Virus genome (UHGV): UHGV-1363679
From: a virus
Strand: one strand, 5' to 3'
DNA: 40,131 nt
Program-made: the position numbers and the translations under genes
Notes under the pieces: model-generated
What the model was told of the DNA's origin: nothing
Seen by the model: only the letters and a program-made list of their open reading frames with translations
Database searches by the model: none
Shown: positions 8,274-27,148 of the stretch, piece after piece
Layout: each line of letters opens with the position of its first letter
How positions within the stretch are numbered: position 1 is the stretch's first letter

Positions 8274-8463
8274 AAAAATGCCCAATCGTCTGCCAACGAT
8301 TAAGGCACATACAAAAATTATACAAGAAAAATTATATCACAGAAACGAGGTCTTGTGAATGAATCGTAGTGAAGCAGATGCGCTAGATCAATTTTTAACA
8401 GAGCCGTTAGAAGAATTACAGAAAATCGAACCAGAATGGGAGTATGACGAGGAGGAAGATAGC

Positions 8464-14937: not shown

Positions 14938-15489
14938 ATGAATAACCAAAAATTGATTGAGAAATGGGAAAGTAAGGAAGGTGTTCCGTCATATGAAATA
15001 AGTGCCTTTCCAGTTAATCCATCTTTAAATGAAATGTATATTGCAGGTTATGGCGTTGCACGAAAAGAAATCCTAGACGATTTAAAACAACTAGACGAAC
15101 CGAAAAAAGTCGTGATACCACAAGTTGTGGCTGACTGGGTTAAATATGCTAAAAGACAAGGCTATGGATTTATGCAGTCGTATGATCCAATATATATGTC
15201 TTATCCAATTAACGATGGCCTTGATAAATGGATAGATGATAATGAAGAGACGTTTGCTCATGCTTGGCTTGACGGCTACGAAGTCGAGAAAGAACCAACG
15301 TATGTAATAAGCATTCCCAACAACAGTTTTTATAAACACTATTTAGCTAGATTTATAAATAATAATTTTGAGAAGCCTGTTTTTAGACACATTGGTGAAG
15401 AAGACCCGTTATTTTTTAAAGACAAAACAAAAGCAACTGTTATTGCTGATTGGGTGAACGGTACGGTTGAGAAGTGGGAGGATCAATAA
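14938..15489 (+). CDS. DUF1642-like phage protein (183 aa).
   Basis: Start at ATG 14938 (GGAGAATTAGCG-ATG). ...KKVVIPQVVADWVKYAKRQG... resembles DUF1642 proteins of dairy-phage early regions. Assignment from memory. Confidence 0.45.
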   Translation: MNNQKLIEKWESKEGVPSYEISAFPVNPSLNEMYIAGYGVARKEILDDLKQLDEPKKVVIPQVVADWVKYAKRQGYGFMQSYDPIYMSYPINDGLDKWIDDNEETFAHAWLDGYEVEKEPTYVISIPNNSFYKHYLARFINNNFEKPVFRHIGEEDPLFFKDKTKATVIADWVNGTVEKWEDQ

Positions 15490-22286: not shown

Positions 22287-22886
22287 ATGAAAACAAAAAA
22301 ACTATTATTGCCAATGCATTTACAATTCTTTGCTGATAATCCAGATACTGGCACTGGAGGTACGGACCAACCGGCCGGAGGTCAAGAGCAAACACCGCCA
22401 GGAGACAGCGGCAAAGATAAAGGTAATGAAAAAACGTTTTCTCGTGGTGAAGTAGCAAAAATGATCGCTGCTGAAGTATCAAAAACAAAAGAAGCTTGGG
22501 AAAAAGAGCAACAAGAAAAACAAGCAGAAGCAGAAAAACTGGCAAAAATGAATGCTCAGGAAAAAGCTGAACATGAAAAGAAACAGCTAGAAGCAAAAAT
22601 TGCGGAATTGGAACGTAGTCAAGCATTAGTTTCCATGTCAAAGGAAGCTTCTAAAATGCTTTCAGAGGCTAGTTTGCCGCATGACGATGATTTGCTAGGA
22701 TTGATTGTTTCAGATGATGCGGAAGCTACAAAAAAAGCTGTCGCTATTGTTACGAACTATGTATCAATGATTAAGAAAGAAAATGCTCGCCAAAAAACAC
22801 CAGGTGAGGGTGGACAATTTTCAACTGATAAAAAAGAAACCGAATCAGTTGCAGCTCTTGCAGCAAGTAAACGAATTGTAAAATAG
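22287..22886 (+). CDS. Scaffolding protein.
   Basis: N-terminal MKTKKLLLPMHLQFFADNPDTG (LQFFA motif of lactic-phage scaffolds). Charged helical remainder. Immediately upstream of MCP. Confidence 0.8.
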   Translation: MKTKKLLLPMHLQFFADNPDTGTGGTDQPAGGQEQTPPGDSGKDKGNEKTFSRGEVAKMIAAEVSKTKEAWEKEQQEKQAEAEKLAKMNAQEKAEHEKKQLEAKIAELERSQALVSMSKEASKMLSEASLPHDDDLLGLIVSDDAEATKKAVAIVTNYVSMIKKENARQKTPGEGGQFSTDKKETESVAALAASKRIVK

Positions 22887-22898
22887 GAGGAAATATAA

Positions 22899-23831
22899 AT
22901 GAAGAAAAAACAATTAATGAAAATGGATATTCAAATGTTTGCTCAAACATGGAATCCAGACAACGTCACTGTATTAGAGAAAAAAGATGGAACAATTCCA
23001 GATAAGTACAACACGTTAATTTTAAAAGATGTGATGGAAAATTCTAAGTTAATGCAGTTGGCTAAATATGAAGAAATGGACGGCAAAGAAAAGAAATTCG
23101 AATACTTTGCAGAAGGTCCTGGGGCGTACTGGGTTGGTGAAGGCGAAAAGATTAAAACGTCTAAACCTAAATGGTTAAACGTAACGATGACTGCGAAAAA
23201 AATTGGTGTTATTATCCCAGTTTCTCGGGAATATTTAACTTATAAGATGTCTGATTTCTTTACTCAAATGCAACCAAAAATCGCAGAAGCATTTTATAAG
23301 AAAATTGATGCGGCTACTATCCTTGATAAAGAAAATCCATTCTCTCAATCTATTGAAAAATCTGTCATTGCAGCTAGTAATGTAATTGAGGGCGACTTGA
23401 CATATGACAATATTTTAGCATTAGAGGATTTGCTTGGAGAAGGTGAATACGATCCGAATGCTTTCATTTCTAATCGTAAGAATCGTACAGTGTTACGTGA
23501 AGCAAGTAAAAAAATTGGTGACACAACTCAATTTATTTATGATCGTGTCAGCAATACTATTGATGGACTACCTGTAGCAGATCTAAAATCTATGGATAAG
23601 GGAAACCTTTATACTGGTGATTTTGATTACTTGCGCTATGGTATCCCATTTAACATTAATTTCAAAATTTCAGAAGAAGCTCAATTATCTACTTTAACGA
23701 ATGAAGACGGTACGCCTGTCAACTTGTACGAACAAGAATTGGTTGCTTTACGAGCTACAATGGATATTGGTTTCATGGTCATCAAAGATGAAGCATTTGC
23801 TAAGATTCAACCAAAAGCTGCGGGGGAGTAA
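22899..23831 (+). CDS. Major capsid protein (0-frame product). A longer variant is predicted by a -1 frameshift at 23822..23828.
   Basis: Size, position after scaffold, and a Q-M-F-A N-terminal motif paralleling the scaffold N-terminus. Confidence 0.75.
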   Translation: MKKKQLMKMDIQMFAQTWNPDNVTVLEKKDGTIPDKYNTLILKDVMENSKLMQLAKYEEMDGKEKKFEYFAEGPGAYWVGEGEKIKTSKPKWLNVTMTAKKIGVIIPVSREYLTYKMSDFFTQMQPKIAEAFYKKIDAATILDKENPFSQSIEKSVIAASNVIEGDLTYDNILALEDLLGEGEYDPNAFISNRKNRTVLREASKKIGDTTQFIYDRVSNTIDGLPVADLKSMDKGNLYTGDFDYLRYGIPFNINFKISEEAQLSTLTNEDGTPVNLYEQELVALRATMDIGFMVIKDEAFAKIQPKAAGE

Positions 23832-23893
23832 CTAGCCCTGTTGTCGGAAAAGTAACACCGACAACAAATGGGGCGACAATCGAACTAACTTAG
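23822..23893 (+). other. Putative -1 programmed frameshift cassette at the MCP 3' end. It comprises the G-run slip site GGGGGAG (23822..23828), a 0-frame TAA (23829..23831), a 9-bp-stem hairpin (23839..23866) and a -1 frame encoding GVTSPVVGKVTPTTNGATIELT* (to 23893).
   Basis: Manual translation of the -1 frame. Hairpin TGTTGTCGG/CCGACAACA. The extension is homologous to the one at the major tail gene. Confidence 0.5.
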
Positions 23894-23904
23894 GTGGTGT
23901 TTTG

Positions 23905-24237
23905 ATGTCAGAGATAGCAAATGATGTAAAAAAATTATTAAATGGCAGTCTTGATGAAAAATTAGAAATCATTGAAAGACGTACAAAAGATCGGCTTCAA
24001 AATATATTGAATGTCACTGAGTTACCAAAAAGTTTTGATTCAGTTGTATATGAAGTCACTTTAAAACGATTTAATCGTATTGGCCAAGAAGGAATGCAAT
24101 CTTATTCTCAAGAAGGTTTATCTATGGCATTTCCAGACTCTGATTTTTCTGAATATCAAGATGAGATTGAAGAGTATAAGAATAAGGAAATAGAAGAACT
24201 TTATAAGCCTAAACGTGGGAGGTTTACATTTTCATGA
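23905..24237 (+). CDS. Head-tail connector protein (gp6-like).
   Basis: Small protein right after MCP. ATG 23905 after GGTGGTG. Confidence 0.55.
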   Translation: MSEIANDVKKLLNGSLDEKLEIIERRTKDRLQNILNVTELPKSFDSVVYEVTLKRFNRIGQEGMQSYSQEGLSMAFPDSDFSEYQDEIEEYKNKEIEELYKPKRGRFTFS

Positions 24238-24569
24238 GATATTTAGATGAAATTACCTTTGTAAAAAAATCTTCAGAATCGCATTATGATCCAAATTCAG
24301 GTGAATGGATTGAAGAAGAACCGTTTAGAAAAACTGCTGATGTCAATGTAACTGATATTGGTACAGATCGTTCTATTACTATTTTCGGAAGCATTAAAGA
24401 AGGGGCTAAGGTCATTAGGACACAGCCCCTTTTCGTTATTCCAGAATTTGATTACATTGAGTTTGAGGGTAAAACTTGGGAAGTTATTACAAGTAGAGTT
24501 CCTGCATTAAGAAATAGCTTGATTATTCAGGAAGTGACTATTGATGGCAAGAAGTCAAGTAAGAATTAA
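24234..24569 (+). CDS. Head closure / head-tail joining protein.
   Basis: Size and position. ATGA overlap. Confidence 0.5.
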   Translation: MRYLDEITFVKKSSESHYDPNSGEWIEEEPFRKTADVNVTDIGTDRSITIFGSIKEGAKVIRTQPLFVIPEFDYIEFEGKTWEVITSRVPALRNSLIIQEVTIDGKKSSKN

Positions 24570-24924
24570 TGGATTAGCTGGAATTTCTAAAAAACTAAAG
24601 AGAAATGCTCAACTTGATGATGTGAAAAAAGTTGTTAGAAATAACACAGCAGAATTAACCGCCAATATGCAAGCTGAAGCCGGAAAAGTGTTAACTGGAC
24701 ACTGGGAAGGTAAAAAGTTTGTTAAACCTACTGGGGCAACAAAAAGAAGTATCGTTATGAGGCTTTCGAACAATGGTTTTTCTGGGCATACAGGACCAGG
24801 AACGGAATACGCACCGTATTTAATAAACGGTACGAGATTTATGGTGAAACGTGATTTCTTTTTACCACCGCTGAAACAACAAAAAGTGAAATTTAGAACG
24901 GACTTGGAAAGGTTGATGAAATGA
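24544..24924 (+). CDS. HK97 gp10-family tail-completion protein.
   Basis: Position. Overlapping start. Confidence 0.5.
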
Positions 24925-25310
24925 TTAAAACAAGAGATCAATCAATCTTCGATGAAGTGTATAAGAAGTGTCAATCACTGGGTTATGAAACCTACGATTA
25001 TAAACCTATGAATGATGTAGGTTATCCATTTGTCGAATTAGAAGATACTCAGACACTGCACCAAGCCAACAAAACTGATATTAAAGGTTCGGTTACATTG
25101 AATCTATCTGTATGGGGATTGGCAAAAAAACGTAAACAAATATCGGATATGGCTTCAGCAATTTTTGCTGAGGCTCTATCTATTTCTGAAACGGAAGGTT
25201 ATTATTGGTCGCTAAATATCCAATCAAGCGGTATTCGGTTAGTAGATGACATTTCGACTAACACAACATTGAAGCGGGCAATGATATCTTTAGAATTCAA
25301 AATACTATAG
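24921..25310 (+). CDS. Tail terminator-like protein.
   Basis: Position immediately upstream of the major tail protein. Confidence 0.45.
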
Positions 25311-25325
25311 AGAGAAGGAATATAA

Positions 25326-25856
25326 ATGGCTAATGAAGCAAAAGTAGCGACTAAAGGTATTGATATTATTTTACTGCTCCGTGTGTTAAAAAAATCAAAA
25401 GAGGAAGCAGCATGGAAATTAGCTTTCCAGACAGAGCATGAAAATACAAAAACAAAAGATAGCGACTCCGTAGCAACTAAAGATGGTCCGATTCGTATCC
25501 CAGGATCATTGGAAATTGATTTTTCGGCAACATCTATTTTATCAGTCGCTGATCCGTATGTTGACCAGCTAGAAGAAGCTTTAGACAATGACGATATTAT
25601 TGAAATCTGGGAAATCAACAAAGCAGAAAAAGGTACAGGAGATAATGCTGACAAGTACAAGGCAACTTATTATCAAGGATATTTAACATCATTTGGTAAA
25701 TCACCTAATGCTGAAGACACTGTAGAAGTTTCATTAGAATTTGGTATCAATGGCAAAGGTGCAAAAGGATTTGCAACATTAACTGCTGATCAAGAAGAAG
25801 TAGTTCAATACATCTTCAAAGATACGACTATTGAAACAGATGATTCGGGAAAGTAG
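25326..25856 (+). CDS. Major tail protein (TP901-1-type; 0-frame product). A longer variant is predicted by a -1 frameshift at 25847..25853.
   Basis: 176 aa. ...KGIDIILLLRV...W..AFQTEH...TKDG..RIPGSLE... fits TP901-1-family MTPs. Position before the chaperone / TMP. Confidence 0.7.
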   Translation: MANEAKVATKGIDIILLLRVLKKSKEEAAWKLAFQTEHENTKTKDSDSVATKDGPIRIPGSLEIDFSATSILSVADPYVDQLEEALDNDDIIEIWEINKAEKGTGDNADKYKATYYQGYLTSFGKSPNAEDTVEVSLEFGINGKGAKGFATLTADQEEVVQYIFKDTTIETDDSGK

Positions 25857-25918
25857 ATAGCCCTGTTGTTGGAGGTGTAACTCCTACAGTCGATGGGGCA
25901 TCTATTGAATTAAGCTAA
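25847..25918 (+). other. Putative -1 programmed frameshift cassette at the major tail gene 3' end. It comprises the canonical heptamer G_GGA_AAG (25847..25853), a 0-frame TAG (25854..25856), an interrupted ~8-bp hairpin (25863..25889) and a -1 frame encoding VDSPVVGGVTPTVDGASIELS* (to 25918).
   Basis: X_XXY_YYZ heptamer in the correct register of the MTP frame. Manual -1 translation. Hairpin 9-12 nt downstream. Confidence 0.6.
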
Positions 25919-25933
25919 GAAAGGAAAATAAAT

Positions 25934-26392
25934 ATGGTGGATACTTTTAAAATTTATAAAGGCCAAACCGAAGTTGTTTCCGGCACATCACCTTTAACTA
26001 TAACAGGAATGGAACCTAACACCTCTGTGCCAGTTGGTGAGTACCAAGTAACTCGTGTTGTTAATGGGAAAGAATCAGAGCGAGTAGATATTCCAGCTTT
26101 TAAAACATTGTCTATTGCTGTAACTGGCTTAGAGTTTTCTCCTAAAACATCAACAGCAGATGCGGGTACTGCAGGTAGCCGACAAATCACAGCAACTGTT
26201 TTACCTGAAAATGCAACCAACAAGAAGGTAAACTATGATATTTCACCTGTAACAGAAGGTCTTGCTGTCTCTGAAACAGGAAATATTACTTGGACAGAAG
26301 CGGTACCGACTGGTGTTTATACCACAACAGGAACAACAGAGGATGGTAAAAAAACAGCTCAACACACCTTAACATTGAATAATCAAGCTTAA
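25934..26392 (+). CDS. Bacterial Ig-like (Big_2) domain protein, a candidate decoration / adhesion protein.
   Basis: ITATVLPENATNKKVNYDIS...GKKTAQHTLTL matches the Big_2 consensus (atvlP.nAtnk.vtW.S ... tatv.v). RBS GAAAGGAAAATAAAT-ATG. The ORF is in the same frame as the MTP -1 extension, separated only by TAA plus 15 nt. Confidence 0.65.
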   Translation: MVDTFKIYKGQTEVVSGTSPLTITGMEPNTSVPVGEYQVTRVVNGKESERVDIPAFKTLSIAVTGLEFSPKTSTADAGTAGSRQITATVLPENATNKKVNYDISPVTEGLAVSETGNITWTEAVPTGVYTTTGTTEDGKKTAQHTLTLNNQA

Positions 26393-26447: not shown

Positions 26448-26798
26448 ATGCAAATCGAAATTAAAGGAAAAAAATATAACTGTATTTTTGGAGTCAAGTT
26501 TATTCGTGAATTGGATAAGCAGCATGGGGTAGTTCGCAATGATGTGAATCTTGGAATGGGGTTAACAACATTATTACCGCAGCTAGTAAGTGGAAATATC
26601 GTTGTTTTATCTGATGTACTTTACACAGCTACCATTACGGAAAAAAGTAGACCTTCTAAGGATGAAGTAGATGAGTTTGTTGAAACTGTTGATGATATTG
26701 AGACATTATTTGATGAAACGTTGAAAAACTTAGAAGAAAGCAATGCGGGAAAGTTAACGGTCAGAAATTTCAAGAAAGCTCTGATGGAGAACAAGTAA
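26448..26798 (+). CDS. Tail assembly chaperone (gpG-like; 0-frame product).
   Basis: Position between the MTP region and TMP. Contains the slippery heptamer. Confidence 0.65.
   Translation: MQIEIKGKKYNCIFGVKFIRELDKQHGVVRNDVNLGMGLTTLLPQLVSGNIVVLSDVLYTATITEKSRPSKDEVDEFVETVDDIETLFDETLKNLEESNAGKLTVRNFKKALMENK
26765..26771 (+). other. Canonical -1 slippery heptamer A_AAT_TTC for the G/GT tail-chaperone frameshift. The -1 frame stays open from 26771 through ORF 26891..27148, giving a ~230-aa GT fusion ending at 27148.
   Basis: Manual translation. The -1 frame upstream of 26891 has no stop back to the heptamer. The heptamer is in the correct register of the 26448 frame. Confidence 0.7.
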
Positions 26799-26890
26799 GA
26801 GAGGAACTAAGCTCAGCTGAAGCTTATGAAAATATTCTTATTAATTGTTTTCGTTACCTAGAAATTACTGATTTATCAGAAATTGAACGA

Positions 26891-27148
26891 ATGACTTTGT
26901 ATGAATATGAAGTTAGGCTATTGGCGTTTCAGTTAAAAAGACTCGACCATGAAAGAGACCTCTATCTTCAATCTTGGCTAAATAACCAAATTAAGGCGAC
27001 TAAAGGTAAAAAATCTGAACCTTATTATAAGGAATTCAATAAGTTTTTCAATTATGAAGAACGAGAGAAGCTTATTTTGGGTAAATCATTAATTGATGAA
27101 AAAGTTGATATAGGAGCAATTGATTTATTAAGAAAAGCAAATAAGTAG
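26891..27148 (+). CDS. T portion of the tail-chaperone GT fusion (probably expressed only via the -1 frameshift, not as a stand-alone gene).
   Basis: In the -1 frame relative to gpG. Open back to the slippery site. Confidence 0.55.
   Translation: MTLYEYEVRLLAFQLKRLDHERDLYLQSWLNNQIKATKGKKSEPYYKEFNKFFNYEEREKLILGKSLIDEKVDIGAIDLLRKANK

Follow-up and report, generated by a model that had tools for sequence, protein, structure and literature searches.

A shared strand-turn-strand tag on phage capsid and tail-tube proteins and its predicted split-domain partner

Phage capsid and tail proteins reportedly acquire Ig-like domains through programmed frameshifting, as described by Fraser et al. in 2006. 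Frameshift-extended examples include the Listeria phages PSA, A118 and A500, SPP1 gp17.1*, Lactobacillus phage A2 and the T3 capsid. Here we compare with these systems a locus in the virus genome UHGV-1363679, of which the whole stretch of 40,131 nucleotides (hereafter the window) was analysed. At this locus the genes for the major capsid protein (MCP) and for the major tail, or tail-tube, protein (MTP) each end at a putative -1 frameshift site leading into a similar short peptide, hereafter the tag, and a separate open reading frame (ORF) encodes a 152-aa protein made of a conserved N-terminal module (N-module) and a Big_2-type Ig-like domain. We find that the tag and the N-module are almost certainly two halves of one split FN3-like domain, and we propose that the tag probably docks the 152-aa protein on head and tail.

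The likeness to the type described by Fraser et al. lies in the recoding at the 3' ends of the major capsid and tail genes, which would yield a C-terminally extended minority of subunits and place an Ig-like domain on the virion surface. In that type, however, the shifted frame holds the whole domain, which is joined covalently, and the extension of the capsid protein is unlike that of the tail protein, whereas here only two strands would be appended, capsid and tail-tube protein bear the same tag and a separate gene encodes the remainder of the domain together with the Ig domain. Both shifted frames in the window close after 22 codons and hold no complete Ig-like domain, unlike a fusion of the Fraser type. 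In Listeria PSA, A118 and A500 both cps and tsh are recoded, and +1 shifting, -1 shifting and in-frame fusion seem interchangeable (PMC5009743). Reading the DNA directly, we observe a HeH/SAP-like capsid extension and a Big_2 domain on the tail in A500, and an acidic 24-mer on the tail in PSA; the DNA of A500 and PSA holds no N-module gene, and their extensions are unrelated to the present tag.

Free Ig-like decorations are represented by T4 Hoc and T5 pb10, which combine a conserved virion-binding module with one or more variable display domains and are dispensable for assembly. These bind the assembled capsid hexamer and are found on the head only, whereas the site proposed here is a recoding-dependent peptide on head and tail that would complete the fold of its binder. 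Lambda gpV and T5 pb6 likewise bear a Big_2 Ig-like domain on the tail tube, matched by the profile of the 152-aa family (E ~1e-6), but as an in-frame covalent fusion on every tail-tube subunit and without an adaptor module. In chaperone-usher pili an Ig-like fold is completed by a strand G donated for polymerisation, and the engineered SpyTag/SpyCatcher pair is a split CnaB2 domain joined by an isopeptide bond. Both share with the present proposal an Ig-like fold that lacks one or more strands and is completed by a short peptide of another polypeptide, and by analogy pilus donor-strand complementation and SpyTag/SpyCatcher would be the nearest mechanistic counterparts. The present case would differ in donating the first two strands of the fold, A and B, from its N-terminal side, with no sign of a covalent link.

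For phiEf11, a -1 frameshift in ORF10 with a predicted downstream stem-loop has been proposed as speculative, and its virions show two MCP bands ~3 kDa apart, with the MCP-L band at 41-43 kDa (Stevens et al. 2016, PMC5221750). That proposal concerns the same phage group and the same 21-aa capsid extension as here, whereas phiEf11 and the window have unlike capsid families and slip sites. In that paper (PMC5221750) the extension was not matched to the C-terminus of the tail protein ORF15, nor tied to ORF16, which is the homologue of the 152-aa protein. An isopeptide bond of the SpyTag kind was considered and rejected as unlikely, because tag residue Asp13 is not conserved, being replaced in the tags reached by +1 shifting (ETS in EfaCPT1, AKS in Staphylococcus phage 187), and because the MCP-L band is too small, a bonded product being expected at ~55 kDa; Asp13 is best explained as part of a DG hairpin turn. 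As a separate matter, phiEf11 ORF15, the MTP, has a predicted mass of 21.5 kDa and ran at 28-30 kDa on sodium dodecyl sulphate polyacrylamide gel electrophoresis, above the 23.4-kDa scaffold, and a modification was suspected (PMC5221750); this mobility does not fit a covalent adduct with ORF16 (~37.6 kDa). No decoration protein is reported in the cryo-EM paper on Brochothrix NF5, which has no bearing on the 152-aa family. Across the open-access literature we found neither a shared tag with a split-domain partner nor a phage decoration based on strand complementation, only the frameshift proposed for the phiEf11 capsid.

Tags at the ends of capsid and tail-tube genes

We found that the unshifted (0) frame of the MCP gene ends ...GCG GGG GAG TAA (stop 23829-31), and that the -1 frame from 23822 reads GG VTSPVVGKVTPTTNGATIELT. 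The MTP frame ends ...TCG GGA AAG TAG (stop 25854-56), and the -1 frame from 25847 reads GK VDSPVVGGVTPTVDGASIELS; here the slippery heptamer (25847-53) fits X_XXY_YYZ in the 0-frame register. The two carriers are unrelated, one being a PF05065 capsid protein and the other a PF06199 tail-tube protein, and their tags are identical at 15 of 22 aligned residues and at 47 of 69 nt. The initial annotation, which had given 15 of 21 residues, was right about the homology, and its tag, gene and ORF coordinates all proved correct when the sequence was reread.

Next, 97 loci were fetched through the 152-aa protein family, 83 of them full-length, and the tag pattern was scanned in six frames over ~100 related loci. 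Matches fell on the coding (+) strand only, and only at the 3' ends of capsid- or tube-sized ORFs. All 83 full-length loci carry at least one tag and 67 carry two, an occurrence far beyond chance; the tag is thus conserved in relatives, a point on which the initial annotation had made its reading depend. The tag consensus is xxPxVxxVxPTxDGAxIxLx. Among its carriers are PF05065 and PF25209 capsids and PF06199 and PF04630 tail tubes, and they fall into at least 10 clusters that are not linked by BLAST.

Relative to its carrier the tag lies almost always in the -1 frame, with the 0-frame stop right behind the slip site. The sequence cGGGGGAG followed by TAA or TAG ends most tag-carrying genes of the relatives and occurs once in the window; other slip motifs are GGGAAAG, TCAAAAAAA and CCCAAAAGCG, each followed by TAG, and GGGAAAC followed by TAA. 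A third GGGAAAGTAA at 14966 lies within an ORF in the wrong register and was therefore set aside as chance. The phiEf11 capsid gene, which belongs to a different family, ends TCA AAA AAA TAG (A_AAA_AAA, then TAG), and its -1 frame gives IEAPKVESVIPTTDGASIVLS, while the phiEf11 MTP (197 aa, ...KDDPEKVDSPSVESVTPTFDGASTELS) carries the tag in frame, as does the MTP of locus L039. Other lineages use other routes. In the lytic Efquatrovirus EfaCPT1, a +1 shift at CCC_UAG on both MCP and MTP leads to STPPVVGQVTTTETSASIELS and STPPVVGQVTPADTSVSIELS, and in Staphylococcus phage 187 the capsid tag is reached by a +1 shift at CCC_UCG and the MTP tag is in frame. In loci L013 and L014 (~8290-8370) a TGA closes the tail-tube ORF, and beyond it, with no change of frame, the tag runs to a further stop (...TV-TGA-TEEPEVLNIEPTVDGADVGLE), which suggests stop-codon readthrough as an additional route to a tagged minority form. 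In the Staphylococcus Kayvirus GH15 (locus L100, 8341-9749) the Ig-domain protein ORF148 ends with an in-frame tag (...PSAPKNVQVTPKEDGADVSAE), and two N-module ORFs, ORF149 and ORF150, come next; as these stand apart from the main structural module of this large myophage, the pair of tag and N-module is not confined to siphophage capsid and tube proteins.

We then examined selection in 89 distinct tag DNAs. In the tag frame the three codon positions have diversities of 0.34/0.29/0.59, the remaining two frames are mostly closed by stops, and the median ratio of non-synonymous to synonymous substitution rates (dN/dS) is 0.35, with dN biased somewhat downward by the location of tags through a peptide pattern. 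Judged from these sequences, the tag is under purifying selection as a peptide, and the -1 frame at the tag sites is open, conserved and selected. The unrelated carriers, the third-position variability, the dN/dS, the in-frame tag of the phiEf11 MTP and the +1 and TGA variants together uphold the earlier claim that selection acts on the shifted frame, and we have very little doubt that both recoding sites in the window are real. In public records such trans-frame products are unannotated, both those of the +1 shift at CCC_UAG in EfaCPT1 (locus L210, 4360-4460 and 6730-6810) and those of the -1 shifts in IME197 and EFC-1.

The free protein and a split FN3-like domain

The family of the 152-aa protein has hosts in Enterococcus, Oceanobacillus, Virgibacillus, Siminovitchia, Halalkalibacterium, Brochothrix, Staphylococcus and others. 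Its members begin with M, 0-8 further residues and then [FY]KIYKG, the start of the N-module (~57 residues; FKIYKGxxVVxEGxSPLTITGLxPNTxVxxGEYQAVRVxxxxESxRVDIPAFKTLPI). The N-module is more conserved than what stands behind it, which is a Big_2 domain, He_PIG, PF22359, two Ig domains, a Thr-rich linker or nothing. It is found at residue 1 in 119 clusters, and a profile search of 1.84 billion representative proteins returned 165 matches, with ~130 of the best 150 beginning at residue 1. Searches of Pfam, of PDB sequences and of PDB folds yielded no named family or solved structure for the N-module. As for the C-terminal half of the window protein, Pfam Big_2 (PF02368) scores 18.1 bits, under the cut-off of 22.8; PF02368 is present in many homologues, the family profile matches solved Big_2 domains (7quz at E 1e-18, besides lambda gpV and T5 pb6), and AlphaFold2 (AF2) models a beta-sandwich, with AF2 and Foldseek concurring on the Big_2 type. 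We also observe that the EfaCPT1, IME197 and EFC-1 records call the N-module proteins 'major tail protein' or 'tail tube protein', which looks like a systematic mis-annotation.

The link between tag and N-module emerges from rare natural homologues in which the two are contiguous, and which are among the few internal matches of the N-module profile. In P0183, P0153, P0161, P0179, P0260 and P0252 a tag-like sequence is followed by a loop of 6-8 aa and an N-module. On its sequence, P0183 (...SPTLTELTPTKDGFTVKLT-GSNEDS-TFRIYDKSG...AFKTLPISV, then a Big_2 domain) is the window tag, loop and 152-aa protein in one chain. When all are aligned jointly, the free proteins start exactly at the third strand of the contiguous domains. 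AF2 models the contiguous P0183 segment at a predicted local distance difference test score (pLDDT) of 97, as a single-chain seven-strand sandwich whose strands follow the expected order A-B-C-C'-E-F-G; strands 6-13 and 16-22 come from the tag-like part, and the ITVT segment, the equivalent of SPLTITG in the window, is a strand. In the model of the window ORF alone (pLDDT 95) strands run at 4-9, 12-17 and 37-43, and SPLTITG is not a strand. The joint alignment and the DSSP assignments of the two models place strands A-B of the window domain on MCP and MTP and strands C-G on the free protein, with the tag predicted to form strand A, a DG turn and strand B. We therefore name the domain FN3-like, because the P0252 copy of tag plus N-module adjoins bona fide fn3 domains, because Foldseek matches the model to tandem Ig/FN3-like structures, and because the profile of tag plus N-module finds only FN3 proteins among PDB sequences, if weakly (E 0.3-0.8). 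No Pfam family was found to span it.

Tag and partner also occur together. All loci picked by their N-module carry tags. In the reverse direction, a viral collection was scanned for DNA encoding VTPTTDGA; true C-terminal tags have an N-module ORF nearby in every case with sufficient flank, and internal VTPTTDGA matches in other proteins of this collection never have one. Capsid tag, tail tag and N-module protein thus form a constant trio, and the expected co-occurrence of the tag with a separate gene holds in both search directions, that gene being the one for the N-module protein. Its position varies, the N-module ORF standing behind the tail-tube gene in phages of the Enterococcus type and behind the capsid gene in those of the Bacillaceae, Staphylococcus 187 and Efquatrovirus types. 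The idea of the initial annotation that the tag is a docking peptide, such as a donated beta-strand, gains strong though indirect support from these results; the partner, however, is the truncated FN3-like N-module and not Big_2, because the N-module is conserved and the C-terminal domain varies or is absent.

One further protein, P0184 (187 aa), has an N-terminal N-module without a tag, one complete domain of tag plus N-module, and a C-terminal orphan tag, a layout that could allow head-to-tail polymerisation or ring closure by strand complementation.

Proposed docking by fold complementation and its alternatives

In the mechanism that we propose, a fraction of ribosomes would slip to the -1 frame at the last codons, at G_GGG_GAG before UAA in the capsid gene and at G_GGA_AAG before UAG in the tail-tube gene, probably aided by a hairpin ~6 nt downstream and by the adjacent stop codon. 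The shifted ribosomes would append a strand-turn-strand peptide of 21-22 residues, which would give strands A and B in trans to the FN3-like domain of the 152-aa protein, a domain without its first two strands; the expected partner of strand B is the SPLTITG strand, which would otherwise be left unpaired. In this way the Ig-like domain would be held, without a covalent bond, on those head and tail subunits that bear a tag, with an occupancy set by the recoding frequency and all subunits tagged where the tag is in frame.

We infer, and consider probable, that fold complementation in trans docks the 152-aa Big_2 protein on tagged head and tail subunits. Consistent with this are the tag stop adjoining the ORF start, the joint changes of deviant tags, and the layouts of P0184 and of GH15. 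The literature adds experimental hints in the two MCP bands of phiEf11 virions and in a 7-kDa protein of vB_EfaS-271, taken up below. Nearly all of 43 distinct junctions have a gap of 1-18 nt between the tag stop and the start of the ORF, with the stop often inside the Shine-Dalgarno (SD) sequence (TAGGAGG), and so short a gap would allow translational coupling. The deviant lineages that alter both tags jointly show TGVxIxMxEGx (L053/L058), VNATxTGANVSL (L088) and PNAKSVxISxE (Staphylococcus phage 187). We likewise infer the efficiency of frameshifting, the physical complementation, the presence of the 152-aa protein on the virions of this phage and the role of its Ig-like domain, which by analogy with the literature on phage Ig-like domains would presumably be weak adhesion to cell-surface or mucosal glycans.

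More broadly, on balance we lean towards a natural and widespread tag/catcher system in Firmicutes phages, with an FN3-like domain split such that strands A-B are supplied by tunable recoding and strands C-G by an adaptor with an exchangeable display domain. The same logic may extend to P0184, which would polymerise, or to the linking of Ig proteins in large myophages (GH15 ORF148/149). The arrangement is apparently a frameshift-mediated Ig-like decoration with a seemingly undescribed attachment principle. If true, it would be a new viral way to attach accessory domains, in which recoding labels a chosen fraction of two unrelated structural proteins and one free protein reads the label by completing its own fold. 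It would explain the conserved recoding at capsid and tail gene ends in many Gram-positive phages, the adjoining small 'major tail protein' or 'Ig-like' genes, which are usually mis-annotated, and why the type of recoding changes while the product stays constant. It would also supply rules for annotating the trans-frame products missing from the records of IME197, EFC-1, Efquatrovirus and other phages, a model of head and tail decoration that is open to direct test, and possibly a small natural peptide/domain pair for the display of cargo on phage particles at controllable density.

Several observations weigh against this proposal. Mass spectrometry of phiEf11 did not detect the extension peptide (PMC5221750). 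The capsid heptamer G_GGG_GAG is not a canonical X_XXY_YYZ; by reasoning, re-pairing would be perfect for the P-site Gly tRNA but would require a central G-U pair on GGA for the A-site Glu tRNA. This heptamer is the commonest site in the family, always with an immediate stop, and recurs in dozens of diverged loci. Averaged over all phages, tag-pair similarity is 0.61 within the same phage vs 0.58 across phages, so that co-variation rests on few deviant lineages; as evidence over the whole family it was discarded as too weak. The N-module without the tag is modelled by AF2 at pLDDT > 90 and may be stable alone. Lastly, the conserved Pro and Gly-Ala codons of the tag double as possible hairpin arms, and part of their conservation may be at the RNA level.

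The confident model of the tagless N-module and the weak averaged co-variation would both suit tags that are real but act alone, for instance as a hairpin that braces adjacent subunits or marks some of them, while the N-module/Ig protein uses another surface and the shared ancestry is only history. We hold this to be unlikely, as tag and N-module occur strictly together in either search direction, the N-modules of >100 clusters share one truncation point and miss precisely the tag-encoded part, the tag stop lies right beside the SD sequence of the N-module ORF, and both tags change jointly in the deviant lineages.

Alternatively, the N-module protein could be an assembly factor or cap that transiently shields the tag hairpin (or is itself shielded by the tags) and not a stable decoration, in keeping with the position of its gene among morphogenesis genes and with family members that consist of the N-module only and have no display domain. 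In vB_EfaS-271, however, a 7-kDa 'major tail protein' encoded next to the MCP is abundant in phage preparations by mass spectrometry, with a coverage of 94% (PMC7503890). By size and position it is most likely the counterpart of the EfaCPT1 gene after the MCP, which encodes an N-module only. Moreover, most members of the family bear Ig-like display domains typical of surface decoration, and we regard a transient factor as improbable.

A third possibility is that the conserved element is mainly an RNA structure, stimulating the frameshift or regulating the downstream gene, with the peptide as a by-product. Hairpins are predicted to begin ~6 nt past both slip sites in the window (capsid, fold of 23815-23900, -24.3 kcal/mol, z -1.7; tail, fold of 25840-25925, -27.3 kcal/mol, z -3.0, starting 6 nt past the heptamer), and the phiEf11 capsid hairpin reaches -28.2 kcal/mol (z -6.1). 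One arm falls on the stretch of Pro codons (GCCC) and the other on the Gly-Ala codons (GGGGC), the -1-type tags hardly vary in their CCC and GGG arms, the VVG and PTT codons are mutually complementary, and the +1-type tags are without the DG/GGGGC motif. Over 36 diverse -1 sites, 63% of cells show pairing of this helix, vs 33-47% in slid controls; its covariation, however, is no higher than in shuffles, and RNAalifold found no consensus structure over the 36 tag sites. The variable third codon positions and the dN/dS in the tag frame also speak against this possibility, as does the retention of the tag where no frameshift is needed (phiEf11 MTP, Staphylococcus 187 MTP, GH15 ORF148), and the strand pattern is preserved in the +1-type tags despite very different DNA. 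An RNA stimulator probably shapes part of the tag in the -1 lineages, peptide conservation is not explained by RNA, and we give the mainly RNA-level account very little credence.

Finally, a decaying MTP-FN3-Ig frameshift fusion broken by a stop, or readthrough of TAA 25916 joining the tail tag to the Big_2 ORF, would fit the window, where tag and ORF share a frame 15 nt apart, as well as the contiguous homologues and Listeria A500, which fuses a whole Big_2 to Tsh via +1 frameshifting, but it is scarcely credible given that the gap between tag and ORF modulo 3 is distributed 14:18:11 over the 43 junctions, the capsid tag, behind which there is nothing, stops at the same residue, the ORF lies behind the capsid gene and not the tail gene in Bacillaceae, Staphylococcus and Efquatrovirus phages, and both halves are selected over a wide host range, the ORF having its own SD sequence and ATG. 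Readthrough fusion was rejected because the frames vary, and for the same reason the shared frame of tail tag and Big_2 ORF, to which the initial annotation had attached significance, is on this comparison of lineages a coincidence. Its further suggestion, that one TAA broke a fusion, does not hold for recent times, because Enterococcus, Bacillaceae, Staphylococcus and other phages all share the split; it survives only as a possible ancient origin, since a fused ancestor is plausible in view of the contiguous homologues.

Features of the locus and neighbouring genes

Table 1. Coordinates of the features discussed, in window positions
Feature	Position	Strand	Details
MCP gene	22899..23831	+	0 frame; 310 aa; HK97-type; PF05065, E 1.9e-31 (Pfam)
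Capsid recoding site	23822..23831	+	G_GGG_GAG; 0-frame stop TAA directly after
Capsid tag	23822..23893	+	-1 frame; GGVTSPVVGKVTPTTNGATIELT; stop TAG 23891-93; predicted strands A and B of FN3-like domain
Predicted capsid hairpin	23835..23874	+	6 nt past slip site; GCCCUGUUGUCGG...CCGACAAC...GGGGC
MTP gene	25326..25856	+	0 frame; 176 aa; tail-tube protein; PF06199, E 1.7e-16 (Pfam)
Tail recoding site	25847..25856	+	G_GGA_AAG (canonical heptamer); 0-frame stop TAG directly after
Tail tag	25847..25918	+	-1 frame; GKVDSPVVGGVTPTVDGASIELS; stop TAA 25916-18
Predicted tail hairpin	25860..25899	+	past slip site; GCCCUGUUG...CGAUGGGGC; inner GGAG/CUCC stem
Junction of tail tag and ORF	25919..25933	+	SD-like GAAAGGAA just past tag stop; 15 nt to ATG
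ORF of 152-aa protein	25934..26392	+	own SD and ATG
N-module of 152-aa protein	25934..26104	+	residues 1-57; FN3-like strands C-G, without strands A-B
Big_2-type Ig-like domain and stop	26105..26392	+	residues about 58-150
Predicted trans-frame junction peptides			...IQPKAAGGVTSPVVGK and VTPTTNGATIELT (capsid); ...DDSGKVDSPVVGGVTPTVDGASIELS (tail)

The genes run in the order scaffold, MCP, connector genes, MTP, 152-aa ORF, tail assembly chaperone and tape measure (coordinates in Table 1). The Enterococcus faecalis siphophages vB_EfaS_IME197 and EFC-1 are 98% identical to the region, and phiEf11 is 92% identical from window position 23852 onward (megablast). This onset of phiEf11 homology lies within the capsid tag, and the capsid gene 5' of it is of a different family; from the sequence, the capsid tag seems to act as a mosaic junction for the swapping of whole capsid modules.

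Two observations concern the genes on either side. The scaffold (MKTKKLLLPMHLQFFADN, 22287-22340) and the MCP (MKKKQLMKMDIQMFAQTW, 22899-22950) have short N-terminal leaders ending in QFFA or QMFA, ends that we take, as a lead only, to resemble the ribosomal L27/Prp cleavage motif of the capsid and scaffold of Staphylococcus phage 80alpha. Downstream, the tail assembly chaperone has a canonical -1 frameshift of the G/GT type (window 26747-27148), with G_GGA_AAG in register at 26747-53 inside the PF12363 chaperone ORF (26448..26798) and the -1 frame open through the ORF at 26891..27148; G_GGA_AAG is the heptamer of both the MTP tag site and this frameshift at 26747.

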